From positions 13,836 through 77,835 of the forward strand of contig CAZYYM010000005.1 in NCBI GenBank assembly GCA_964651385.1: 64,000 bases of DNA, read 5' to 3'. The notes under the pieces are model-generated. The model was given only the letters and a program-made list of their open reading frames with translations, was not told the origin of the DNA and made no database searches. The DNA is from an uncultured Gammaproteobacteria bacterium (GTDB taxonomy: Bacteria; Pseudomonadota; Gammaproteobacteria; GCA-001735895). A program made the position numbers and the translations under genes. Below, piece by piece: positions 39,319 to 55,432 of the stretch (position 1 is its first letter; each line of letters begins with the position of its first letter).

Positions 39319-41058
39319 ATGATGGTTCGTGCGATGACTAAACTGACCTTACTAGAGCGACGTTTACGGATTGTCACTGGTTTGATATTGTCGGTTTATA
39401 TCGTTTTTCACCTTTTTAATCATACGCTTGGGTTGGTATCTCTGGACGCTATGGAAGCCATGCGCAAAGCGATCACGCCATTTTGGCGTAGCTGGTTTGG
39501 CGGTTTATTAATATACGGCTCATTGCTTACTCACCTGGCGTTGGCGCTCATGTCCTTATACCGTCGTAGCAGTTTGCGCATGCCGGCCTGGGAAATGGCG
39601 CAATTGATACTCGGGTTATCGATTGTCCCACTCCTCGCCGGGCATATTTCGGCCACCTGGGGCGCCAGGGTTTTATTGAATTTTAATCCGAATTACGATT
39701 TTGCACTCACTGCAATTTTAAGTAGTCCCTGGTTAAGCACCAAACAGTTATTACTGATAATCGTTGTCTGGTTACATGTCGTCGTCGGCCTGCATTTTTA
39801 CTTTCGGCTGTTTAGATTTTATCGTCGCAAGGCGATTCATTTATATCCATTCGTTGTGATATTGCCTGCACTGGTGATATTTTCAATTGTACGAGTAGGT
39901 CTCGATATAGGCGTTTGGAATTCGACACCGTCAAAAGTCGCCAAACATCCTCTGGGGGGCTATGTCGGTGCCGAACCGACTTACCTGGAGGGCACACCGC
40001 TTAATATTATCCTGCACCACGGTATCCTCGTTGTGTTTTTCAGCTTGTTATCGTTAGTACTGATTGCGCGGTTGCTAAGGGCAAAGCGCCAGCTGACCCA
40101 CGGCAATGTAGTTATCAAACATTTAAATGGTCGTGAATTCAAAGGCGTACCGGGACAGACGATTCTGGAGGTGCTGCGCCTGCATTCGATACCACATGCT
40201 TCGTTATGCGGTGGTCGGGGCCGTTGCACCACCTGCCGCGTACGGGTTGGCGCCGGGGCAAAGCTATTGCATAAGCCTTCAGCGCTGGAACAGTTTGCGC
40301 TCGACCGAATCGGTGCCGCGCCCAATGTTCGCCTGGCCTGCCAGACGCGTCCCGGACATCCGTTGCAAATCAGTCCGCTGGTGCCGGCCGATCTCGACAT
40401 CGAAAATAGCTTGAGAAAGGGGGGTGTCAGCGGCGATGAGCGAGAAGTCGTCGCTATGTTTGTCGATTTACGCGGTTCCTCCAGCATTAGTGAGGGGCAT
40501 TTACCTTATGATGTGCTATTTATTTTGAATCAGTTTTTTCTGGAGATGGCGGATGCGTTAAGCGACAGCTTCGGCCATTACGCACAATTCGAAGGCGATG
40601 GCTTATTGGCGCTCTACGGTTTAAAACGGGGCATGAAAACCGGATGTATCGACGCATTGAAAGGAGCGATTGATATGCAACGACGTATGAATCAACTCAA
40701 TGATAAACTCAGCGGTGAGCTGCAAGAACCCCTTAATTTCGGTATCGGCATTCACTGTGGCCAGGCGATTGTAGGCAGTATGGGGCCGCCCACAACACCA
40801 AACTATTCGGCGATTGGCGATTGCATTAATGCCGCTGCCAGACTGGAAAATATGTCAAAGGAACTGGAATGTGTGCTGGTCGTCTCGGATGATGTGATAA
40901 AGCACACGGGCTCCGATTTCAATGTTTTTGAAAGCCAGATTGTGCGTTTGCGAGGAAAGCAACAATCAGTCCTGGTCTATGCCATAGAGAATCCGCTGGA
41001 TATTAAACTGACAGTTGTCGAATCGCTTCAGGATGACCAGTTTTCACCTGCGGTATAA
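39319..41058 (+). CDS. Class III nucleotide cyclase with a His-rich membrane domain and a 2Fe-2S ferredoxin domain (CyaC-like)
   Basis: TM helices carrying His (FHLFNH, LTHL, AGHI, WLHV), CGGRGRCTTC...RLAC, FVDLRGS, GDG, NAAARLE. True start may be ATG 39334. Confidence 0.88.
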   Translation: MMVRAMTKLTLLERRLRIVTGLILSVYIVFHLFNHTLGLVSLDAMEAMRKAITPFWRSWFGGLLIYGSLLTHLALALMSLYRRSSLRMPAWEMAQLILGLSIVPLLAGHISATWGARVLLNFNPNYDFALTAILSSPWLSTKQLLLIIVVWLHVVVGLHFYFRLFRFYRRKAIHLYPFVVILPALVIFSIVRVGLDIGVWNSTPSKVAKHPLGGYVGAEPTYLEGTPLNIILHHGILVVFFSLLSLVLIARLLRAKRQLTHGNVVIKHLNGREFKGVPGQTILEVLRLHSIPHASLCGGRGRCTTCRVRVGAGAKLLHKPSALEQFALDRIGAAPNVRLACQTRPGHPLQISPLVPADLDIENSLRKGGVSGDEREVVAMFVDLRGSSSISEGHLPYDVLFILNQFFLEMADALSDSFGHYAQFEGDGLLALYGLKRGMKTGCIDALKGAIDMQRRMNQLNDKLSGELQEPLNFGIGIHCGQAIVGSMGPPTTPNYSAIGDCINAAARLENMSKELECVLVVSDDVIKHTGSDFNVFESQIVRLRGKQQSVLVYAIENPLDIKLTVVESLQDDQFSPAV

Positions 41059-42962: not shown

Positions 42963-43355
42963 TTATAGCAGCGCGAACGACTCGGGTAATTTACAAAAAT
43001 AGGCAATTCGTTCACTTAACACACCAGTGTCGCCAACCTTAATTACTGCACTGCCCTGTAACGGAGTTCCTCTGGCTTGCCACCAGCACCAGACTGTGGC
43101 GGGTAAATCATCGTCCTTAATTATCATATCACTATAGTCCAGAAAGGGATTGGCATTTACTTCACCGCCCATACTAACAGCGACGGCTGTAAAATCATTG
43201 ACAAAATTAACAAACTCGGCACGTTTAATCCTGCCTGTATTCGGATCATCGTAATAAAAGCCTTCGGCGGTGGCGCTCAAACTGAGTTCGCCATCACCGA
43301 TTTTCCAGCCGTTCAAATAGGTTTGGATAGACTTGCTGATCGTTTCAGCTGTCAT
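42963..43355 (-). CDS. NTF2/SnoaL-like protein
   Basis: YLNGW..GDG......AEGFYYDDP and C-terminal SERIAY pattern. Start moved to ATG 43355, overlapping the cupin gene by 11 nt. Confidence 0.65.
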   Translation of the reverse strand: MTAETISKSIQTYLNGWKIGDGELSLSATAEGFYYDDPNTGRIKRAEFVNFVNDFTAVAVSMGGEVNANPFLDYSDMIIKDDDLPATVWCWWQARGTPLQGSAVIKVGDTGVLSERIAYFCKLPESFALL

Positions 43356-43749
43356 AAGGCGCAGGCATTTCATCGGCATCGATACCGGGTACGTGGGTGA
43401 TACCCGCACGTTGTTTCCAGTCTACCGGATAAGCCGAATAAAAAATGACGCATTTATCGTCACACTCGTAAATGACATGATTGTCCTTGGGTACAAACAT
43501 CAAGTCACCGGGATTTAGCTCGTAGTTGACACTGTCAACTACCAGGCGGAAAGTGCCTTTGAGGCAGTAGATGAGTTCGTCGCAGGTTAAATCCCATGGC
43601 ACCGAAATTTTATTCAACGCGTTGATGCCGCCACACATGCTATTACTAATTTCGGTGGTGACAAAAGGTTTGATAAATGTGCCGTTTTCGGGCAGATTGT
43701 CGATTCGATCCTGAATGTCGGCGATTCTAAATACACTGGGTGCTGTCAT
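43345..43749 (-). CDS. EutQ-like cupin
   Basis: SMCGG, WDLTCDELIYCLKG, LNPGDLMFVPK, FYSAYPVDW; RBS GAGG. Confidence 0.8.
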   Translation of the reverse strand: MTAPSVFRIADIQDRIDNLPENGTFIKPFVTTEISNSMCGGINALNKISVPWDLTCDELIYCLKGTFRLVVDSVNYELNPGDLMFVPKDNHVIYECDDKCVIFYSAYPVDWKQRAGITHVPGIDADEMPAPYDS

Positions 43750-43773: not shown

Positions 43774-44778
43774 TTATTCAAGTAGTTCCGCGATTGTGCT
43801 ATCGAGGAAATGTTCAAATTCAGGGCTATTGCCAGGCGATGCAACACAGTGCCCCCAGGGTGATTCGAAGACTCGAAGCTCGCCATTATTAATGTGTTCA
43901 ATCTCAATCTGGTTATCTTCGACGCGAAAGTACAGGTCGTGGTTGCAAACAATCACAATGGTTCTGGCTTTAATCGCTTTCAAAGCCGCCTGGAAATCAC
44001 CGCCATAAGCAGGTTGCGCACTGATGTCACCCAGTTGCCAGGTTTTTAATTTGCACAGCAGGTCGTTGGCATCCCAGTCGAGATGATCCTGTTCCCAGTC
44101 CTGTAGCAAAGCCTCCGCAGTATCGAAGCCCTTAAGCTTATACAAATGCTCGCGGTAAAAGGTTTGCGAAAAGGCCCAGCCCGCATAAATTCGCCCGAAA
44201 GCTTTCAGGCCCTTGACCGGTGGTGTCAGGTAATTTCCGTCGTCATAAACGGCGTCCGCCTGCAAAGCCGCTTTGACGCCTTCGAGGAACACTATATTGT
44301 GTTCGGCTGTTTTTGCCGATGCACAGAATGGCAGAATAGCTTTAACCATATCAGGATACTGCGCCGCCCATTGAAACGACTGGCAACCCGCCATTGACCA
44401 GCCCGCCACCAGTGCAATCTGTTCGACACCGAGCTGCTCGGTTAATAGCAGATGCTGCGCTTTGATATTGTCAAATAGCGTTATGTCCGGGAATCGCGGC
44501 CCATCGAAAGGCGCCGGGGTATTGCTTGGCGAAGACGAAATGCCATTGCCGAACAGATTCACCGAGACGATGAAATGCCGATCCGGGTCAATCGCACGAC
44601 CCGGGCCGAAGAAGCCTTCATTGCGGCCATGGCTGCCGGTATAAAACGTCGGCAGGACAACAACATTATCTGCTGCCTGGTTTAAGGCACCATAGGTTTT
44701 GTAGGCCAGCTTCAGCTCGGGCAGGACAATTCCCGACTGAAGCCGAAATTCGTGCAGATTAAAGCTGTCGTAATCCAC
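43774..44778 (-). CDS. Alpha/beta hydrolase of the homoserine-O-acetyltransferase (MetX) fold
   Basis: FRLQSG..L..L.LAYKTYG.LN, NLFGNG.SSSPS, nucleophile GWSMAG, acid HDLYF, His PWGH. Start moved to GTG 44778. Confidence 0.85.
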   Translation of the reverse strand: MDYDSFNLHEFRLQSGIVLPELKLAYKTYGALNQAADNVVVLPTFYTGSHGRNEGFFGPGRAIDPDRHFIVSVNLFGNGISSSPSNTPAPFDGPRFPDITLFDNIKAQHLLLTEQLGVEQIALVAGWSMAGCQSFQWAAQYPDMVKAILPFCASAKTAEHNIVFLEGVKAALQADAVYDDGNYLTPPVKGLKAFGRIYAGWAFSQTFYREHLYKLKGFDTAEALLQDWEQDHLDWDANDLLCKLKTWQLGDISAQPAYGGDFQAALKAIKARTIVIVCNHDLYFRVEDNQIEIEHINNGELRVFESPWGHCVASPGNSPEFEHFLDSTIAELLE

Positions 44779-44786
44779 CGAAAGGC

Positions 44787-46205
44787 CTAGTATAGACGCA
44801 AATATTCCTGCACTTCCCAGTCCGTCACGGTCTGGTGATAACGCTCCCATTCGTCGACTTTATAGGCCAGAAAAGAGCGGTGCATGGCCTCTCCCATGAC
44901 CGCTTTGGCCATCTCGTCGTTTCTCAATGCCTCGGTAGCCACCATCAGGTTTCGTGGCAGCCGACGAATTCCATGTTCTTTCAACTGTTCGTCGGTCATT
45001 TCGTAGAGGTCGAAATCGGTCGGTTTGCCCGGATCGATTTTATTATTAATGCCTTCAATTGAAGCAGTCAGCGTCATCGCCAGACCCAGATAGACATTCA
45101 TACACATATCCGCGGCTCGGTTTTCGATGCAATAGCGGCTTTGTGGCAGGCGGAACTGCGCCGAGCGATTGTTATAGCCATAAGTGATATTGGTCGGCGC
45201 CCAGGTCACCGTACCGCCTTCGAAACCACCGACTTTCGGCACCAGGCCGTTATAGGAATTCACCGTCGAACAGGCAATTGCGGTTATGGCTTCAGAATGT
45301 GCCATTAAACCCCCGACCGCGTGCGCGGATTCGGCGGACCAGCCGTTTTTGTCCGAGCCGAAAATATTCACTCCCGGATTATCTACCGATTGCATTGAAA
45401 AATTAATATGTGCGCCCGAACGCCAGTCTCCGGTAGTCGGTTTCGGCATAAAGGTGATAAACATACCGTGCTCCTTGGCTATTTCTTTCAACAAAATTCG
45501 CAGGAAAACCAGGCGATCGGCCATTTCCAGCAAAGTGGTGTAGTGAAAGTCGAGTTCAAACTGCGAATAGGCACCCTCGGCGACGACATCGTGGATGTTC
45601 CAGCCCAGGTCCTCGAGGATGTCGATCATATCTTTCAGGAATGGCATCGAATCGATCGAGTACTCGACATCATAGCCGAAGGCCTGACGCCGCGGCTTGA
45701 TGCCGTTTTCAGGGTCATCTTCGATCGCCTTGACGGGCTGGCCAGCGTCGTTATAACGCATCGCGATGAATTCCGGTTCGATACCGGCATAACCGACATA
45801 GCCTGCGGCCTCACTATCTCGCATCGCGCGTTTCAACGCCTGCCTGGGGCAAACGTTATAGGGCTTATCCTCCCAGAACAGATCGGCAAAAATAATCGCC
45901 ATCGACTTGTCCCAGGGGCAGATATAAACCGCGTCGAGGTCGGGCACCATGACCTGATCCGAATCGGCTGGCGAGAGTTCCGGCACAAATGAAATCGAAT
46001 GCACTGCGAACTGCGGCCCTTTGCCCATACACAGCAGCTCAAAATCGCTCATCGGCACCGGTTTTGTCTTCGGGATACCGAACAGGTCTATCCAGCTCGA
46101 TAGTACGTATTTGACACCGGCGTCTTCGAGTTCCTTGCGAACTTCGGCTATTCGCTCGGCAGTCGGCAGGGCATCGGCAAAATTTTCATAATAAGTGCTG
46201 CTCAT
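44787..46205 (-). CDS. Glutamine synthetase-like ligase (GmaS/GlnT-related, atypical pocket)
   Basis: WIDLFG, GIEPEF, AEG..SQFE, FMPKP, H of SGAH, NNRSAQFRLP, IENRAAD; strong RBS GGAGG. Confidence 0.9.
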   Translation of the reverse strand: MSSTYYENFADALPTAERIAEVRKELEDAGVKYVLSSWIDLFGIPKTKPVPMSDFELLCMGKGPQFAVHSISFVPELSPADSDQVMVPDLDAVYICPWDKSMAIIFADLFWEDKPYNVCPRQALKRAMRDSEAAGYVGYAGIEPEFIAMRYNDAGQPVKAIEDDPENGIKPRRQAFGYDVEYSIDSMPFLKDMIDILEDLGWNIHDVVAEGAYSQFELDFHYTTLLEMADRLVFLRILLKEIAKEHGMFITFMPKPTTGDWRSGAHINFSMQSVDNPGVNIFGSDKNGWSAESAHAVGGLMAHSEAITAIACSTVNSYNGLVPKVGGFEGGTVTWAPTNITYGYNNRSAQFRLPQSRYCIENRAADMCMNVYLGLAMTLTASIEGINNKIDPGKPTDFDLYEMTDEQLKEHGIRRLPRNLMVATEALRNDEMAKAVMGEAMHRSFLAYKVDEWERYHQTVTDWEVQEYLRLY

Positions 46206-46226: not shown

Positions 46227-46739
46227 TCAGGTGCTCTGCCGCTTCAGCAGAAATTGATTTTTGAACATCTCGATACCGGTCATGACTTCGAGATCGGCAA
46301 TATCGTCACTGCCATAGCAATGCTGTTCCAGAAACCTCTGGAATGATTCGCTGGAATCGCAAACTACCTCAATGAGTAAGTCGTAACGCCCGGAAACCCA
46401 GAGCACATAGACCACCTCGGTATACTGTGAAAGTCTTTCCGCCACCGCACGTGGAGCTGTTGGCGAGGCCACCTTAATACCGATCATCGCATCGGCCTTA
46501 TAACGAATCGCCATCGGATCAGCCAGCGCAACAATCTTCAGCAGGCCGTTTTTTTTCATCGCCTGCACACGATTGCGGATGGTGCCTTCGGATACCTTCA
46601 GGGTTCGTGCGACGTCTTTGTAAGCCATGCGCCCATCGTCCTGAAGCAACTTGATAATCGATTGGTTCAGCTCATCGACCGGGGAATCGATACTGCGCGA
46701 CTTACTGCTGGATATCGAAACCGGGGCATTTACCGTCAT
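46227..46739 (-). CDS. Lrp/AsnC family transcriptional regulator
   Basis: IIKLLQDDGRMAYKDVARTLKVSEGTIRNRV, VSGRYDLLIEV. Confidence 0.92.
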   Translation of the reverse strand: MTVNAPVSISSSKSRSIDSPVDELNQSIIKLLQDDGRMAYKDVARTLKVSEGTIRNRVQAMKKNGLLKIVALADPMAIRYKADAMIGIKVASPTAPRAVAERLSQYTEVVYVLWVSGRYDLLIEVVCDSSESFQRFLEQHCYGSDDIADLEVMTGIEMFKNQFLLKRQST

Positions 46740-46913
46740 AGAGTATTGAGTTTTATGCTTTGTTTTGCCGAATTATTGATGATAATGATAATATTAGCAA
46801 GATTTATTAACGAAAACGCAATCTGCTGCGAAAAAGGCTACGCGATACGAAAATTCTATGATAATTTATCGATACCTAATAAGACCTTCAATCGCTTTAC
46901 GGAATCTATGCTT

Positions 46914-48038
46914 ATGAACCAGATTTTGGATGCGTCCTTATTCAAAGAATTCGATCAGCCCTTCGGGCTCTCCCACGGATTGCCCGGCTCGGCATATACC
47001 AGTCCGACATTCAATCAGCTCGAAAATGAGCGAATATTCTCGCGTAGCTGGGTCTTCGTCGGCTTTGCGCACGAACTGCCCAATAGCGGCGACGTGGTGC
47101 CGATTAACATCGCAGGCCTGCCGCTGTTTTTGCTACGTAATGACAATGGCGAAATAGCGGCGTTTCACAATGTGTGTCGACATCGCAACCTGCAGATCAT
47201 CGATAAACCCGCCAATTGTGGGAAAATTATCCGTTGCCCTTACCATAGCTGGAGTTACGACCTCCGTGGCCAGCTAAAGAATGCGCCCTATTTCGGCGGC
47301 GGTGCGAAAGACCTGCCTGCAGGCTTCAATCTCGAGAATAACGGTTTAATGCCGGTTAACATTGCGGTCTGGCACGACTGGATATTCCTCAACCTCGCCG
47401 AAGAACCTCGCGCCTTCGAGCATTTCATCGCGCCGCTAAAAACTGCACTGGGTGACAACGATGTCAGCCAGTATGTCCCCGTTACCACGGTTCAAATGGG
47501 CACAGTAAAGTGCAACTGGAAGTTACTAATGGAAAACTTTATCGAGCCCTATCACGTGCAGTTCGTGCATAAGACCACCACCGAGCAACCACTGCAAGAT
47601 CACTACCCCGTTATCGAAGGCGACTGCCTCGGCAGTGCCGTCGACCTCAGCGAAGAACAGATGGCGGCAGCAAGGTCTGATACCCTCGGAGTCTCGTCGA
47701 AATACCTGACGCTATTCCCTAACTTCGTCATGGGAACCTATCATCCGGACCAGGTCGGTGTTCATCTGAATACACCGATTGATGGGGAAACAACCCTGCA
47801 ACGTCGTGTTATTTACCTGCACAAAGATGCCGGTTATAGTGACGAACAGATTCAGGGCCTGCACGACCTGTGGCACAGTGTTCACCTCGAAGACCACGAA
47901 ATGTGCCAGCGACTACAGCAGGGCCGCCACTCGCCGCTGGCACAACAGGGCGGTGTGTTATCGCCGCACTGGGAAACCAGCGTACGAAAATTTCAGGAAC
48001 TGGTCGCCAACGCCGTGCGACCGGGCCTAAGTCAATAA
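46914..48038 (+). CDS. Rieske non-heme iron oxygenase alpha subunit (choline/carnitine monooxygenase-like group)
   Basis: CRH...CPYH Rieske motif, ENFIEPYHVQFVH iron ligands, ED..C..LQQG..S. Start moved to ATG 46914 (46908 also possible). Confidence 0.92.
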   Translation: MNQILDASLFKEFDQPFGLSHGLPGSAYTSPTFNQLENERIFSRSWVFVGFAHELPNSGDVVPINIAGLPLFLLRNDNGEIAAFHNVCRHRNLQIIDKPANCGKIIRCPYHSWSYDLRGQLKNAPYFGGGAKDLPAGFNLENNGLMPVNIAVWHDWIFLNLAEEPRAFEHFIAPLKTALGDNDVSQYVPVTTVQMGTVKCNWKLLMENFIEPYHVQFVHKTTTEQPLQDHYPVIEGDCLGSAVDLSEEQMAAARSDTLGVSSKYLTLFPNFVMGTYHPDQVGVHLNTPIDGETTLQRRVIYLHKDAGYSDEQIQGLHDLWHSVHLEDHEMCQRLQQGRHSPLAQQGGVLSPHWETSVRKFQELVANAVRPGLSQ

Positions 48039-48052
48039 ATTGAGGAAAACCA

Positions 48053-48472
48053 ATGAACGAAGCCGCCAGCAAACCCGATTTTCGCCTCGATCACACAATG
48101 ATCCGTGTTTTAGACCAGGGGAAAACTATCGACTTTTACACCCGTATTCTGGGGATGAAAATTTTGCGCCAGAATGAATATCCTGACGGTCGTTATACCA
48201 ATACCTTCGTCGGCTATCAGGGCGAAGACGATGGCACCACCATCGAAATGACCTACAACTGGGATCAGCAAGAACCCTACGACATGGGTAATGCCTGGGG
48301 ACATTTCGCGTTGAAGGTATCGGACGTCTACGCAACGGCGGAATATCTCAAATCGGAAGGTGTCGAGTTCGTGCGAGAAGCAGGGCCGATGAATGCAGGG
48401 ACGCGTATTATTGCGTTCTTCAAAGATCCGAATGGTTATGTCATCGAATTGAATGAGCCGTTGTCGAATTAG
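48053..48472 (+). CDS. gloA: Lactoylglutathione lyase (glyoxalase I)-like VOC protein
   Basis: HTMIRV, FYT.ILGMK, IEMTYNW, GHFAL, FFKDPNGY.IEL. Confidence 0.82.
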   Translation: MNEAASKPDFRLDHTMIRVLDQGKTIDFYTRILGMKILRQNEYPDGRYTNTFVGYQGEDDGTTIEMTYNWDQQEPYDMGNAWGHFALKVSDVYATAEYLKSEGVEFVREAGPMNAGTRIIAFFKDPNGYVIELNEPLSN

Positions 48473-50110: not shown

Positions 50111-50620
50111 TTGCGCACTACACAGCCCGTAATAACAGAAAACAAAACCATTCTGGTCACTGGTTCTTCAACCGGCATTGGCAAGTGCGTTGCCCATGGG
50201 TTACACCAACGCGGCTACCGAGTCTTCGCGAGTGTCCGCAATGCGGATGATATAGCCGCTAATACAAAGGCAGGGATGGACAGTCTATTGCTCGACTACA
50301 ATGATTCGGCAAGCATCAAGATGGCGGTCGAAAGTCGATTTCGTGAAAATGCTTATCGTGCATTTCAGCAGCACATAGTGGTTGATAACAGCATTCATCG
50401 TCAACGCTATCAAAAAATGATCCAGCGATTTAAAGCCAGCGGGAAGGCACAGCCGTTTACGTTGCCACCGCAAGCCGTACTCAAGTGTGTGGTACACGCG
50501 CTGGAGAGTAAACGACCAAAGATACGCTACCCAGTCACTTTCCCGACTTACCTGTTTGGCTTGTTAAAGCGTGTTATGAGTGATCGGATGCTGGACAGGG
50601 TTCTGAGGAGGGTTGGCTAA
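50111..50620 (+). pseudogene. SDR oxidoreductase (YbbO-like) with a large in-frame internal deletion
   Basis: N-terminal TGSSTGIG and C-terminal RFRENA...RYPVTFPT are present. NNAG, the catalytic Ser, YxxxK and IEPGP are absent. Junction at ~50327-50335. Confidence 0.75.
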
Positions 50621-50867: not shown

Positions 50868-53432
50868 TCAGGACCGCGGCAATTTATTCTCTGGATCAAA
50901 TAATGGCTTATAACCAACCGACTCGACCTTCATCGTAAATTGCTCGCCGAGATATTCGGTAACCATTTCGCGTCCTTCCTGACAATACTCGTAGGGTAGA
51001 TAGCCCAGCCCGATATTTTTAGCAATGCTCGGGCCGTAGGCGATGCTGCTTAAATACGAACGACGGCCTTTTGAATCAACCGGTACCTCGCCGGTTTCCG
51101 GGTCCATCAATGGGCACTGGCCGACCGGGAAACGTGCAATACCGTTGGAATCAATATTGTCTGTCATCGACAGTGTGCACAGATAGGCTGCCTGATGTTC
51201 GAGTTCACGCTGCTCGAGGTAAGGCGCTTTACCGTGGAAATCCGCTTGCTTGACCACCGGGCGTGCGAGACCGGCTTCGTAAAGGTTGTACTCGGTCAAC
51301 AGGTCGGCATTTTGCAGACGCAGGCTTTTTTCCATGCGTCGGCTGTTGGCGTAAGTTTCGATGCCGACTGGTGTCGCACCCTGTGCGTAGACCAGATCCC
51401 ATAGTGACATGCCGTAACTGAATGGCACATGTAGTTCCCAGCCCTGTTCGCCGACGTAAGAAATGCGGAAAGCTTCGACCGGGATGCCCTTGAGCGTGAG
51501 GTTTCGGGTTGCAGCAAACGGGAAGTTTGCGTCCTCCCACGCGGCAGAGTCGTCAGCAATTGCCTGTATGGTCTTGCGCGCATTCGGTCCCCAGACGCCA
51601 AGGCAGGCCATGTGATCGGAACGGTCATCGATATAGACGTTCCAGCCGTTGTCTTCGGCCATGCGCTTGAGCCAGATAAAATCACGGTTGCCTGCATCGG
51701 CACCATCGATGACGCGGAAGCGGTCCTTGGCGTGACGAATCACCGTGAGGTCTGCGCGTACGCCGCCACGCTTGTCGAGAAAGTGCGTGTAGACGCCTTT
51801 GCCAATCGGTGTGTCTCCACCGACCCTGGCAACACAAGTATATTCCATCAGCGCTTCGGCGTCGGGGCCTAATACATCATAGACGGCGAAATGCGAAAGG
51901 TTGATCATGCCGACGTTTTCAGACATTGCCAATTGCTCGGCGTTGGATACACGCCAGAAATGTCGGTTGTCCCACTCGTGCTCGCGTAGCGGCGCCTTGT
52001 CACCGTATTTTTCCAGTAGGTGTTCGTTGGAGGCGTAGCCGTGCGCGCGTTCCCAGCCCGATAGTTCCATGAAATATCCGCCTAATTCCTGCTCTCGCGC
52101 CCAGAATGGGCTGCGGCGCAAGTTACGCCCTTTGCTATAAGGCTCGCGGTTATGCACGGCCGGGTTGTAAATCTTGAATGCTGATTCGTAGCAGCGATCG
52201 TATATATACGTTGGTGTTTTCTGAATCGGGTAGTGGCGCGCGGTGTCGATACCGAAGAAATCCATCTCGGCGACGCCGTCAGTCATCCAGTCTACCAGTA
52301 CCTTGGCAATGCCCGGTGCGTCTTTGACCCATATTGCGATTGCGTACCAGAGGCCACGGGTTAGCGTCGATTCGCCGACTGATGGACCGCCATCGGTGGT
52401 TACCTGCAGCAGGCCGTTAAACGAATGTTTCTCGTTATAACCGAGTTCACCAAGAATCGGAGTCAGTTCCATGGCACGCTCCAGCGGTTCCATGATCTGT
52501 TCGAGTTCGAGATCGCGCTGTGACGGCGACCAATGGGTTTCGCCCGCTTCGGGAAGATTGCGCGGGTGTAGCAGGCGCGGTTCTTTTTCTTCGTAATAAC
52601 CCCACTCTATTTGACCGCCTTCCGGAGTTTTCGGGTCGCCGGTATCGCGCATATAAGCCGAATTGCCCTGATCCCGCAGCAGTGGATAGCCGATATCCTT
52701 GCCAGTACCCTCGAATTCTGTATAGGGGGCGAAGAATGTGAGTGGATGATCGACTGGCATGACTGGAAGGTCCTCGCCGGCCATCTCAGCGATGGTGCGC
52801 CCCCACAATCCCGTGCAGACGATGACGTAATTGGCAGCGATATAGCCGCGGCTGGTTTCGACACCGACGATACGGCCCTCCTGAATGTCGAGGCCGGTTG
52901 CTGCGGTATTGGCAAAAGACTGTGCTTTGCCGGTTTTAACCGCGTTTTCAACCAGAATGCCGGCGACTGTTTGCGAGCGGGGTTTTACCAGTCCCGCATC
53001 CGGATCCCACATTGCGCCCTGGATCATGTCTTCTTCCAGTAAGGGAAACTTTTCCTTGGCTTGTGCAGCGCTAATCATTTCCACATTGGTGCCAAAGGCT
53101 TTTCCCGAAGCGACCTTGCGCTTGAGTTCCATCATGCGGTCCTCGTCGTCCTTACGCGCCACTTCGAGCCCGCCAACTCGGTCGTAGTGGCCCATCTTGT
53201 CGAAGAATTTGATGCTGTAACCAGTTGTGTAGCAGACGAACTTGCTGTGATCGGTGGCGTAGCAGAAATCGGAGGCGTGCGAAGTGGATCCGACATCGGT
53301 CGGAACTGACGCTTTATCGATACCGACAATATCGTCCCAGCCACGTTCGACCAGGTGATGCATCACCGAGGAGCCGACGATACCACCGAGGCCTATAATA
53401 ACGACGTTGGATTGCTTTGGAAATTGTGCCAT
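50868..53432 (-). CDS. GcvT-family FAD-dependent N-demethylase (dimethylglycine dehydrogenase/oxidase-like)
   Basis: IIGLGGIVG, GSTSHA (position of the covalent-FAD His), THF-binding GcvT domain (ISYVGEQGWELH, RMEK), C-terminal barrel. Start moved to ATG 53432. Confidence 0.88.
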   Translation of the reverse strand: MAQFPKQSNVVIIGLGGIVGSSVMHHLVERGWDDIVGIDKASVPTDVGSTSHASDFCYATDHSKFVCYTTGYSIKFFDKMGHYDRVGGLEVARKDDEDRMMELKRKVASGKAFGTNVEMISAAQAKEKFPLLEEDMIQGAMWDPDAGLVKPRSQTVAGILVENAVKTGKAQSFANTAATGLDIQEGRIVGVETSRGYIAANYVIVCTGLWGRTIAEMAGEDLPVMPVDHPLTFFAPYTEFEGTGKDIGYPLLRDQGNSAYMRDTGDPKTPEGGQIEWGYYEEKEPRLLHPRNLPEAGETHWSPSQRDLELEQIMEPLERAMELTPILGELGYNEKHSFNGLLQVTTDGGPSVGESTLTRGLWYAIAIWVKDAPGIAKVLVDWMTDGVAEMDFFGIDTARHYPIQKTPTYIYDRCYESAFKIYNPAVHNREPYSKGRNLRRSPFWAREQELGGYFMELSGWERAHGYASNEHLLEKYGDKAPLREHEWDNRHFWRVSNAEQLAMSENVGMINLSHFAVYDVLGPDAEALMEYTCVARVGGDTPIGKGVYTHFLDKRGGVRADLTVIRHAKDRFRVIDGADAGNRDFIWLKRMAEDNGWNVYIDDRSDHMACLGVWGPNARKTIQAIADDSAAWEDANFPFAATRNLTLKGIPVEAFRISYVGEQGWELHVPFSYGMSLWDLVYAQGATPVGIETYANSRRMEKSLRLQNADLLTEYNLYEAGLARPVVKQADFHGKAPYLEQRELEHQAAYLCTLSMTDNIDSNGIARFPVGQCPLMDPETGEVPVDSKGRRSYLSSIAYGPSIAKNIGLGYLPYEYCQEGREMVTEYLGEQFTMKVESVGYKPLFDPENKLPRS

Positions 53433-53553
53433 GGTTTTTTCTCCCAATGACCGCCGGTCTCGGCCGACGCGGCTGTATAGGTGTCGAAATTTTGTGAAAA
53501 GGCAGTATAAACACCCCGTTTTAACTTCTCCAATAGATTTAGATCATGAAGTC

Positions 53554-53576: not shown

Positions 53577-53750
53577 ATCTGATCAATTGCAAATGCTTGA
53601 TTCCACATGAAATGTCGATAAAATACTCGGCCTCCTTTATATCAGTACGGGATTTTCGGGACCGGGTCGGATTATCGTTTATCCGGTATTTTGAATAGCT
53701 ATAGCGATCTGGATTTTCAGCTGAGATTGCTACTACGAGACATTGCGAGC

Positions 53751-54500
53751 ATGAAAATACTAGTTTGTGTGAAGCGCGTCCTCGACCCCCAGGTCAAGGC
53801 GCGTGTTAAAGCGGATGGGTCTGGAGTCGACCTGGCAAATGCCAAGATGACCATGAACCCGTTTGATGAAAACGCGCTTGAAGAAGCCCTGCGTCTGCGT
53901 GAAGCCGGTACGGGTGATGAAATTGTTGTGGTTTCGATCGGTGCAGGTAAGACCGAAGAGACATTACGACATGGACTTGCCATGGGTGCAGATCGTGCGA
54001 TTAACGTGGTTACCGAGCAAGCGCTCGAGCCATTAGCGATTGCCAAGGTGTTGAAGGCTATCGTTGATCAGGAGCAGCCTGGTCTGGTACTTGCTGGCAA
54101 ACAGGCGATTGACGATGACTCGAACCAAACCGCGCAAATGCTTTCAGCATTACTCGGCTGGTCTCAGAGTACATTTATTTCTGATCTAAAAATCGACGGT
54201 GATACTGCGACCACCATTCGCGAAGTTGACGCCGGCCTAGAAACAATTACCGTAAAAATGCCGACGGTAATCAGCGTCGATTTACGTTTGAACGAACCGC
54301 GTTACGTAAAGTTACCCGACGTAATGAAAGCCAAACGCAAGCCAATGGATAAGATCGATCTTGATAGTCTCGGTCTCGATACTGCCAATCGTATGACAAC
54401 AATTCTGGTTGAAGAGCCGGAAGGTCGGGTTGCCGGCGTTATTGTTGAAAGCGTCAGCGAACTGGTCGATAAACTGCGTAACGAAGCGAAGGTAATTTAG
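53751..54500 (+). CDS. etfB: Electron transfer flavoprotein beta subunit
   Basis: MKILVCVKRV.D, MNPFDE.ALEEA, GKQAIDDD, NEPRY. Start moved to ATG 53751. Confidence 0.95.
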   Translation: MKILVCVKRVLDPQVKARVKADGSGVDLANAKMTMNPFDENALEEALRLREAGTGDEIVVVSIGAGKTEETLRHGLAMGADRAINVVTEQALEPLAIAKVLKAIVDQEQPGLVLAGKQAIDDDSNQTAQMLSALLGWSQSTFISDLKIDGDTATTIREVDAGLETITVKMPTVISVDLRLNEPRYVKLPDVMKAKRKPMDKIDLDSLGLDTANRMTTILVEEPEGRVAGVIVESVSELVDKLRNEAKVI

Positions 54501-54502
54501 TC

Positions 54503-55432
54503 ATGAGTAATTTAGTCATAGTCGAACACGACAATAAAGAAGTCGCCGCTGCTACCCTACACGCTGTCACGGCGGCTCAACAGATTGGCGGAGATATTGA
54601 TTTGCTCGTAGCCGGTGAAAATTGTGGAGCCGTTGCTGACGCCGCTGCAAGGATTGCCGGAGTATCTAAAGTCAGCGTAGCGGACGATGCCAAATTCGGT
54701 CATCACATGGCTGAAAATCTGGCATTGTTGATCGTCGAAGTTGCCGGTGATTACAGTCACGTACTGGCTTCGGCTACTACATTCGGCAAAAACGTCATGC
54801 CGCGCGCATCAGCGTTGCTGGATAAGGCACAGATTTCTGAAATCGTCGAAATTAAATCGCCCGATACTTTTGTCCGCCCGATTTATGCAGGGAACGCACT
54901 AGCCACCGTTCAGTCTTCGGATTCGATCAAAATGATTACCGTTCGCACCATCAAGTTCGAAGCAGCAGCTGCTGAAGGTGGTTCAGCCAGCATCGAAGCA
55001 ATGGGCGGTGGGGCTGACAGCGGATTGTCTAGTTGGATATCAGAAGCCGGTTCCAACACCGACCAGGTTGATCTGACTTCGGCCAAAATCGTTGTGTCCG
55101 GTGGTCGTGGTATGCAAAACGGTGATAACTTTGCCATGCTGCATTCTGTGGCGTCCAAACTGGGTGCAGCAGTCGGTGCCTCACGAGCTGCGGTTGATTC
55201 GGGATTTGTGCCGAACGATTTTCAGGTCGGTCAAACCGGTAAGGTTATCGCGCCTGATTTGTACATCGCGGTCGGTATTTCCGGTGCGATCCAGCATCTG
55301 GCCGGAATGAAAGAATCGAAAGTGATTGTTGCGATCAATAACGACAGCGAAGCACCGATTTTTCAGGTCGCCGATTACGGCCTGGTTGCCGACTTGTTTG
55401 AAGCGGTTCCGGAATTAGACGCTGCGCTTTGA
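54503..55432 (+). CDS. etfA: Electron transfer flavoprotein alpha subunit
   Basis: [42 protein letters not shown]. Confidence 0.96.

Follow-up and report, generated by a model that had tools for sequence, protein, structure and literature searches.

Paralogues of glutamine synthetase (GS) are as a rule simply labelled 'glutamine synthetase' in annotations, and the acid site is taken to be invariant. A gene within a 64,000-nucleotide stretch of DNA from an uncultured gammaproteobacterium (assembly GCA_964651385.1, contig CAZYYM010000005.1, positions 13,836–77,835; hereafter the window) raises the question of which substrates such an enzyme joins when the residues that hold the acid have themselves been exchanged. 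The open reading frame (ORF) at 44787–46205 on the minus strand encodes a 472-residue protein, predicted to be an ATP-dependent amide ligase of the GS fold, in which R262 takes the place of Gly265 of GS and G320 that of Arg321. This swap defines a deep and hitherto unnamed group of GmaS-like enzymes, for which we use the name RG clade and which extends beyond the ligase's own family (the FAVHS family). We favour a reading in which the arginine that anchors the acid has been relocated within the pocket.

The ligase matches the Gln-synt_C profile (PF00120) across all 344 profile positions with an E-value of 2.4e-85 (287 bits against a cut-off of 24), and a weak profile match covers its beta-grasp N-terminal domain. 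The PF00120 score lies above the gathering score and the metal, ATP, and phosphate ligands are present, which places the protein in the glutamine synthetase superfamily. No named NCBIfam model reaches its curated cut-off with this protein, the scores being 355.8 bits against 469.6 for TIGR03105 (type III/GmaS), 300.5 against 429.15 for TIGR00653 (GlnA), and 196.9 against 650 for NF045547 (PuuA). The recomputed motif coordinates are residues 66–70 for FAVHS, 141–146 for GIEPEF, 209–217 for AEGAYSQFE, 345–352 for NNRSAQFR, and 361–363 for ENR. The GDWRSGAH loop comprises residues 259–266 (45408–45431, minus strand) and NSYNGL residues 316–321 (45243–45260, minus strand). FAVHS, GDWRSGAH, and NSYNGL thus stand in the ligase where GS has FDGSS, GDNGSGMH, and NSYKRL. 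The original prediction for this gene had described three altered motifs on an intact metal- and ATP-binding core, and both parts of that description hold: all three motifs lie where it had located them, and E143, E145, E210, E217, H266, R347, R352, E361, and R363 are invariant in an alignment of 95 sequences (34–87% identity), as is Y178. By equivalence, E143, E145, E210, E217, H266, and E361 bind the metals, while R347, R352, and R363 contact the phosphates and the gamma-carboxylate.

Mis-registration of the motifs was looked for and not found. The number of residues from MPKP to the metal-ligand His is equal in the GlnA of the same genome (MPKPIVGDNGNGMH) and in the ligase (MPKPTTGDWRSGAH), with no indel between them. 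This equal spacing, together with the common NSY, makes the register unambiguous, so that R262 corresponds to Gly265 and G320 to Arg321. W261 accordingly aligns with Asn264, H266 with the metal ligand His269, and N319 with Lys320, in the established Salmonella GS numbering (Asn264, Gly265, His269, Lys320, and Arg321). In RhGmaS, the counterparts of R262 and G320 are Gly231 and Arg288. An AlphaFold2 model of the ligase, of the kind proposed alongside the original prediction, is confident, with a predicted local distance difference test score (pLDDT) of 92.3 and a predicted template-modelling score (pTM) of 0.93. Its best match in the PDB is the GmaS of Methylovorus mays (9QUR; template-modelling (TM) score 0.89/0.95), followed by several GS transition-state complexes and RhGmaS, with TM scores of 0.85–0.95 overall. 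Judging from the conserved ligands and the model, the protein is most likely an active, ATP- and metal-dependent carboxylate–amine ligase of the GS fold.

The genome carries six GS-family genes (contigs C66, C125, C166, C26, and C154; loci L081–L086), which encode GlnA (motifs FDGSS, GDNGNGMH, and NSYKRL), a GmaS-like protein, two PuuA-like proteins, a GS-like protein of 489 residues (NSYRRL and GVSASGCH), and the window ligase. The other five proteins keep Gly265 and NSY[KR]R. The statement in the original prediction that GmaS retains NSYKR proved right for 9QUR, 7CQL, and the GmaS-like paralogue of this genome. To place the exchange among relatives, 319 full-length homologues were aligned; their sources were the 120 nearest clusters, 150 sequences each representing a cluster at 50% identity, and 105 relatives of a member with 43% identity. 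Arg262 is found in 211 of the 319, and all 211 have Gly320; the other 108 have Gly, Ala, Asn, Ser, or Thr at position 262, and all 108 have Arg320. No mixed state, either Arg with Arg or Gly with Gly, occurs among the 319. A pattern scan of species-representative genomes yielded 529 stretches encoding a relative, and the motifs were checked in the best 80 of them. All 76 family copies in these 80 genome loci have both GDWRSGAH and NSYNGL, which excludes chance or decay as the origin of the motif changes. Both swapped states are also found in 66 of 66 swapped-type copies of a second subclade, from 80 further metagenomic loci. The family keeps 76–92% identity across Gamma- and Alphaproteobacteria; its carriers include Arenicellales (some of them sponge-associated) and Granulosicoccaceae in the former, and Rhodospirillales, Hyphomicrobiales, Pelagibacterales (SAR11), and roseobacter plasmids in the latter.

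On a maximum-likelihood tree, the RG proteins form several subfamilies, comprising the FAVHS family, which sits on a long branch, and the YGVHA, YTVQA, and F/YTVGA groups, which extend to approximately 35% identity. A canonical group with Gly and Arg at the two positions (P0295–P0305) is nested in or sister to the RG proteins. The swap requires two changes on this tree, and a single origin is not rejected (approximately unbiased (AU) test, p = 0.45). The covariation is therefore taken to reflect one or two events in the past, after which both states were strictly kept, and independent origins by convergence are not claimed. A clade-discrimination scan found that positions 262 and 320 are the only absolute discriminators between RG and canonical proteins, with V68, R357, and N362 as partial ones. 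The acid pocket has therefore not otherwise been rebuilt. In addition, the residue at position 320 is invariably Gly and not just any residue other than Arg, as if the new arginine imposed a steric or backbone constraint there. Both observations speak for functional coupling of the two positions and against a simple loss of the arginine.

The structure of RhGmaS with methionine sulfoximine, a glutamate analogue, indicates what the two positions touch. The ligand is held by Glu124, Glu179, Gly231, His235, Arg288, and Arg327, and the loop that carries Arg288 is flexible and closes once ATP has bound (PMC7948447). A HMMER alignment to 7CQL, whose chain carries a 20-residue tag, maps these residues to E145, E210, R262, H266, G320, and R363 of the ligase, respectively. 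Four of the six contacts are kept, and the two that are changed touch the same, alpha-amino-acid end of the ligand. From this mapping, we favour a relocation in which the arginine for the alpha-carboxylate would have moved from the mobile NSYKR loop to the rigid loop just before the metal-ligand His. In the simplest account, Gly at the old Arg position would free space, with the guanidinium shifted to the opposite wall of the sub-site, and acid binding would become uncoupled from the ATP-induced loop closure. The evidence favours a compensatory swap because the coupling is perfect, positions 262 and 320 are almost the sole clade-wide differences, and the other four ligands are kept. The donor would most probably be L-glutamate, activated by phosphorylation of the side-chain carboxylate of the alpha-amino dicarboxylate. 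The original prediction had offered a compensatory swap and a new acyl donor as the two options; the coupling in the 319 homologues and the 66 further copies favours the swap, and a new donor is the less probable of the two.

A clearly less probable, though serious, alternative is that the swap changes the acid itself. The RG clade would then activate an acyl donor other than L-glutamate, such as D-glutamate, beta-glutamate, aspartate, 2-aminoadipate, an N-substituted or betaine-type amino acid, or a dicarboxylate without an amino group, and the RG enzyme would be the first ligase of the GS family to use an acid other than glutamate. It is precisely the alpha-end of the pocket that differs, with W261/R262 and N319/G320 against Asn264/Gly265 and Lys320/Arg321, and Arg321 is otherwise universal (108/108 non-RG relatives). 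However, E145, which serves as both the alpha-amino and a metal ligand, is kept together with E210, H266, and R363, and just two absolute clade-specific positions are what a like-for-like swap would leave, not a redesigned pocket. The aromatic or hydrophobic residue at position 261 occurs in canonical relatives too, for example in DNFGSGAH.

The amine site has changed in a different manner. The original prediction had read the loss of Asp50 as a sign of an organic amine acceptor; the loss is real but not distinctive, as Asp50 is absent from every GmaS-like relative sampled (FAGFA, FTGAA, YTVGA, and others). In GmaS, the base that deprotonates methylamine is Asp177, and the strictly conserved catalytic residues are Arg312, Asp177, and Glu186 (PMC7948447). 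More telling than the missing Asp50 is that, in the ligase, this GmaS-specific base Asp177 is replaced by Val208, Gln175 by Asp206, and Asn188 by Asp219. The equivalents of Tyr147 (Y178), Lys30' (K48'), Glu179 (E210), and Glu186 (E217) are kept. Twenty-five invariant residues are private to the FAVHS family, among them W261, Y213, R172, R173, and E329. R172 and R173 lie in a five-residue insertion (RRQAF) just before Tyr178, and E329 lies in an 'LVP..GFE' segment resembling the Glu327 flap of type I GS ('LVPGFEAP' in GlnA). The new acids (D206, D219, and E329) and the two arginines line the amine site. The nucleophile pocket thus appears to have been rebuilt with both acidic and basic character, which would match a small amine that is zwitterionic or polar. 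The acceptor is most likely an organic amine that is neither ammonia nor methylamine, and a new amine specificity is likely. The broader claim of a new amide-ligase specificity is therefore reasonable for the acceptor, in view of the family-specific pocket residues and the separate GmaS-like gene of the genome, and no more than possible for the acyl donor.

The ligase is part of a compact gene cluster. It is followed by a MetX-fold alpha/beta hydrolase (abH) of the NF005757/PRK07581 subfamily of unknown function (43774–44850, minus strand; 437.5 bits against a cut-off of 332). The hydrolase starts either at the ATG at 44850, with a 64-nucleotide overlap with the ligase, or at the GTG at 44778, 8 nucleotides past the ligase stop, and is translationally coupled to the ligase. 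It retains the GWSMAG nucleophile motif and the C-terminal His but has Cys for the Asp that follows the catalytic His of MetX. This hydrolase stands immediately after the ligase in 65 of the 80 genome loci. The minus-strand unit continues with a small EutQ-like cupin (43345–43749; PF06249, 7e-14), found in 17–21 loci, and ends with a small protein (42963–43355) that is NTF2-like by eye only, has no family match, and is kept after the cupin in 7–8 loci. Directly upstream of the ligase lies an Lrp/AsnC-family regulator (46227–46739, minus strand; 58–62 loci). Divergent from the regulator is the alpha subunit of a GbcA-like Rieske non-haem-iron oxygenase (Rieske1; 46908–48038, plus strand), which scores 143 bits, below the cut-off, with the GbcA model; its longest ORF starts at 46662, and the likely start is 46908 or 46914. 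Rieske1 is present in 38–39 loci. A glyoxalase I (lactoylglutathione lyase; 48053–48472, plus strand; TIGR00068, 138 bits against a cut-off of 120) directly follows it and recurs in 28–36 loci with a median identity of 83%. Among the 80 loci, a second Rieske oxygenase (Rieske2) with a D-2-hydroxyacid dehydrogenase is found in 22–23, and a NitT/TauT-type ATP-binding cassette (ABC) importer in 15–22.

The arrangement of these genes varies among carriers. A plasmid of Leisingera thetidis has them as one co-directional operon in the order Rieske, glyoxalase, cupin, ligase, ABC importer, and hydrolase. In SAR11 (Pelagibacteraceae single-cell genomes, L076–L080), the dehydrogenase and Rieske2 are divergent from a run of Rieske1, glyoxalase, cupin, ligase, and hydrolase; three ORFs that by eye resemble a luciferase-like monooxygenase, a thiamine-diphosphate enzyme, and another alpha/beta hydrolase follow this run. 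In some Arenicellales genomes, mgsABC and a canonical gmaS come directly after the ligase and hydrolase, which indicates that the ligase is not a redundant GmaS. In three such loci (L003, L011, and L012), the mgsABC-like genes, identified by eye, and the gmaS after them lie on the same strand as the ligase and hydrolase. This adjacency hints that the ligase pathway feeds or accompanies methylamine assimilation.

The second RG subclade, whose ligases in the metagenomic loci are approximately 37% identical to the window ligase, has comparable neighbours. An abH-type hydrolase, 50% identical to that of the window, is present in 20 loci, a creatininase-family hydrolase, often translationally coupled, in 22, Rieske1-like oxygenases in 23 (one counterpart is 34% identical to the window Rieske), and NitT/TauT importers in 11–12. 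Since the same hydrolase type adjoins RG ligases of such low identity, the ligase–hydrolase partnership is older than the FAVHS family. MetX-fold and creatininase-type partners were never seen together in one RG locus. A tblastn search with one query, of limited sensitivity, found no PuuD/Peptidase_C26 homologue in 160 RG loci; of two loci from the canonical sister group, one has Peptidase_C26. NCBIfam scans of the partners in the sister subclades returned generic names only (creatininase/MftE-like, agmatinase-like, and FGE-sulfatase-like). A protein of about 247 residues resembling FGE-sulfatase and the EgtB C-terminus recurs beside an RG ligase and a Rieske oxygenase in six metagenomic loci of the second RG subclade (L134, L136, L139, L145, L147, and L151). 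The canonical sister group P0295–P0305 occurs in actinobacterial contexts like those of some RG members, with AsnC, AA_permease, FmdA, and AllG. In four actinobacterial-type loci (L092, L094, L095, and L093), swapped and canonical relatives occur with an APC permease, FmdA/AmdA amidases, AllG (DUF1116), and arginase-family genes; together, these genes make up an uncharacterized nitrogen-compound island.

It is mainly because of these unusual hydrolase partners that an acyl donor other than L-glutamate is retained as an alternative. The partners are MetX-fold or creatininase proteins in place of the PuuD type, which was seen only on the canonical side, and the long branch of the FAVHS family with its private invariant residues points in the same direction. 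Conversely, the hydrolase type may reflect lineage history, and the single-query PuuD search had limited reach. The same partners bear on a very improbable reading, according to which the protein is not an intermolecular amide ligase and its acyl phosphate serves cyclization, yielding a lactam or pulling a ring-opening, or is handed as an acyl group to a MetX-fold acyltransferase. Translational coupling often links RG ligases to creatininase-family hydrolases, which act on cyclic amides, or otherwise to a MetX-fold protein with acyltransferase relatives, and the RG ligases possess neither the GS base Asp50 nor the GmaS base Asp177. Nevertheless, the protein still has an amine pocket, and a charged one (Y178, K48', E210, E217, D206, D219, and the flap-like E329), the GS family offers no precedent for such a reaction, and the mutual exclusion of creatininase and abH partners better fits interchangeable hydrolases. 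Least credible is an ordinary GmaS or glutamine synthetase acting on methylamine or ammonia, with motif changes due to neutral drift in a paralogue, since, although GmaS is the best match in sequence and fold, mgsABC–gmaS adjoin the ligase in four Arenicellales loci, and methylated-amine genes lie close by in the window, the ligase scores under the GmaS and GlnA cut-offs, has Val for the base Asp177 and Asp for Gln175 and Asn188, shares its genome, and in places its operon, with a canonical GmaS-like gene, combines extreme conservation (76–92%) with invariant novel residues, and is linked to a hydrolase, an oxygenase, and an importer of its own.

Taken as a whole, the reading that combines an active RG ligase, a relocated anchor, L-glutamate as the likeliest donor, and a step in an operon has, in our judgement, a probability somewhat above even. 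Several points weigh against it. The relocated anchor is proposed from covariation and from published contacts in an enzyme of 30% identity, and the covariation may statistically amount to one event that was then retained. The reading does not account for the acids and arginines of the amine pocket. Moreover, the RG partner hydrolases differ from the PuuD/glutamine amidotransferase (GAT) type of known gamma-glutamyl pathways, and the RG amide product could therefore be something other than an ordinary gamma-glutamyl amide.

With glutamate as the donor and a relocated anchor, the ligase would catalyze a single step within a conserved operon for catabolism or nitrogen scavenging. The NitT/TauT system would bring in the amine, which the RG ligase would join to glutamate and so tag as an amide. 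One Rieske oxygenase or two, together with a dehydrogenase, may then oxidize the tagged amine, possibly with the release of a 2-oxoaldehyde to glyoxalase I, and the amide bond would be cleaved by the MetX-fold hydrolase, as the last step or as a safety valve. The amide-tag logic, all steps past ligation, and the nature of the amine are suggested by analogy with known pathways and by gene context. Several substrates were considered from the context, namely dimethylamine, aminoacetone or 1-amino-2-propanol, taurine-type aminosulfonates, carnitine-derived trimethylaminoacetone, creatinine-like cyclic amides, and omega-amino acids, and none is supported enough; the aminosulfonates were prompted by the SsuA/TauA-like binding protein of the importer. 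Genes for methylated-amine oxidation lie about 5 kb from the ligase cluster in the window. They comprise a dimethylglycine/sarcosine-dehydrogenase-like protein with DAO, FAO_M, and GCV_T domains (50868–53447, minus strand) and, beside it, two ORFs reading like the beta and alpha genes of an electron-transfer flavoprotein (53691–55432, plus strand).

These results define a large clade by the perfectly coupled relocation of a putative substrate-anchoring arginine, with partner hydrolases of its own. The patterns xxxR[SN]GxH and NSYxG provide a sequence marker for this functionally distinct group, and on the favoured reading the swap would be a textbook-style case of compensatory active-site rewiring. 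The ligase, the binding protein of the importer, for example that of Leisingera thetidis pBMJM1_1, and the cultured carriers, among them Leisingera thetidis BMJM1, Pelagibius sp. Alg239-R121, Mesorhizobium sp. Root552, and Hoeflea sp. TYP-13, offer a way into an uncharacterized nitrogen-compound pathway of abundant ocean bacteria. We consider it rather unlikely that the RG acid substrate, or its binding mode, differs from that of L-glutamate in GS and that RG ligases, with a MetX- or creatininase-fold hydrolase, a GbcA-like Rieske oxygenase, and glyoxalase I, make up a new, abundant marine route for a small nitrogen compound. Such a route might, for example, handle a methylated or C3 amine, transferring its nitrogen in amide form and releasing its carbon as a 2-oxoaldehyde. 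If true, this would be an unrecognized and very abundant marine route in SAR11, Arenicellales, and roseobacters. Two further ORFs in the window were recorded separately. A 169-residue ORF (50111–50620, plus strand) matches short-chain dehydrogenases over residues 12–74 only and looks truncated or internally deleted. A 579-residue ORF (39319–41058, plus strand) has, by eye, an N-terminal membrane domain, a CGGRGRC-type 2Fe-2S ferredoxin motif, and a nucleotide-cyclase-like C-terminus.

A literature search found no paper on the ligase family or its operon, and the sources name the family only 'glutamine synthetase (family protein)'. Among characterized enzymes, the ligase is closest to GmaS (RhGmaS, 7CQL–7CQX; 9QUR), which it resembles in fold, length, metal, ATP, and phosphate residues, and the missing Asp50, and which provides its best sequence matches (2.7e-70 for 9QUR and 7e-60 for 7CQL). 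The counterparts of the GmaS residues Arg312 and Glu186 are kept (R347 and E217). In contrast, Arg288 has become Gly, Gly231 Arg, Asp177 Val, Gln175 Asp, and Asn188 Asp, and the ligase further differs in the RRQAF insertion before Tyr178 and in its FE flap motif, which is like that of type I GS. With the type I enzyme GlnA, the ligase has in common the catalytic core (equivalents of Glu129, Glu131, Glu212, Glu220, Glu357, His269, Arg339, Arg344, and Arg359) and the LVP..FE flap-like segment. It lacks the GlnA signature at the substrate sites, where the Asp50 loop is FAVHS, Asn264-Gly265 is Trp-Arg (W261-R262), and Lys320-Arg321 is Asn-Gly (with G320 for Arg321). At the level of the pathway, the Puu and Ipu pathways share the logic of gamma-glutamyl tagging. 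In the aniline and 1-naphthylamine dioxygenase systems, the gamma-glutamyl amide made by a GS-like ligase is the substrate of a Rieske oxygenase, and a hydrolase can undo the ligation (PMC11335346). The window cluster has the architecture of gamma-glutamyl tagging, a ligase coupled to a hydrolase and oxidizing enzymes: as in AtdA1/NpaA1, Puu (PuuA–PuuD), and Ipu, a GS-like ligase is tied to an amide hydrolase, and the shared architecture also includes one or more Rieske oxygenases, a dedicated regulator, and an importer. The hydrolase, however, is not of the PuuD/class-I GAT type in the RG loci; it is MetX-fold in the window cluster and creatininase-fold in sister subclades, whereas the AtdA1/NpaA1 and Puu systems use GAT/PuuD. 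The window Rieske enzyme is a GbcA-like single alpha subunit accompanied by glyoxalase I, whereas that of the aniline system is an aromatic dioxygenase with a small subunit. Finally, unlike the AtdA1/NpaA1, Puu, and Ipu ligases, the RG ligase has the arginine in its proposed relocated position.

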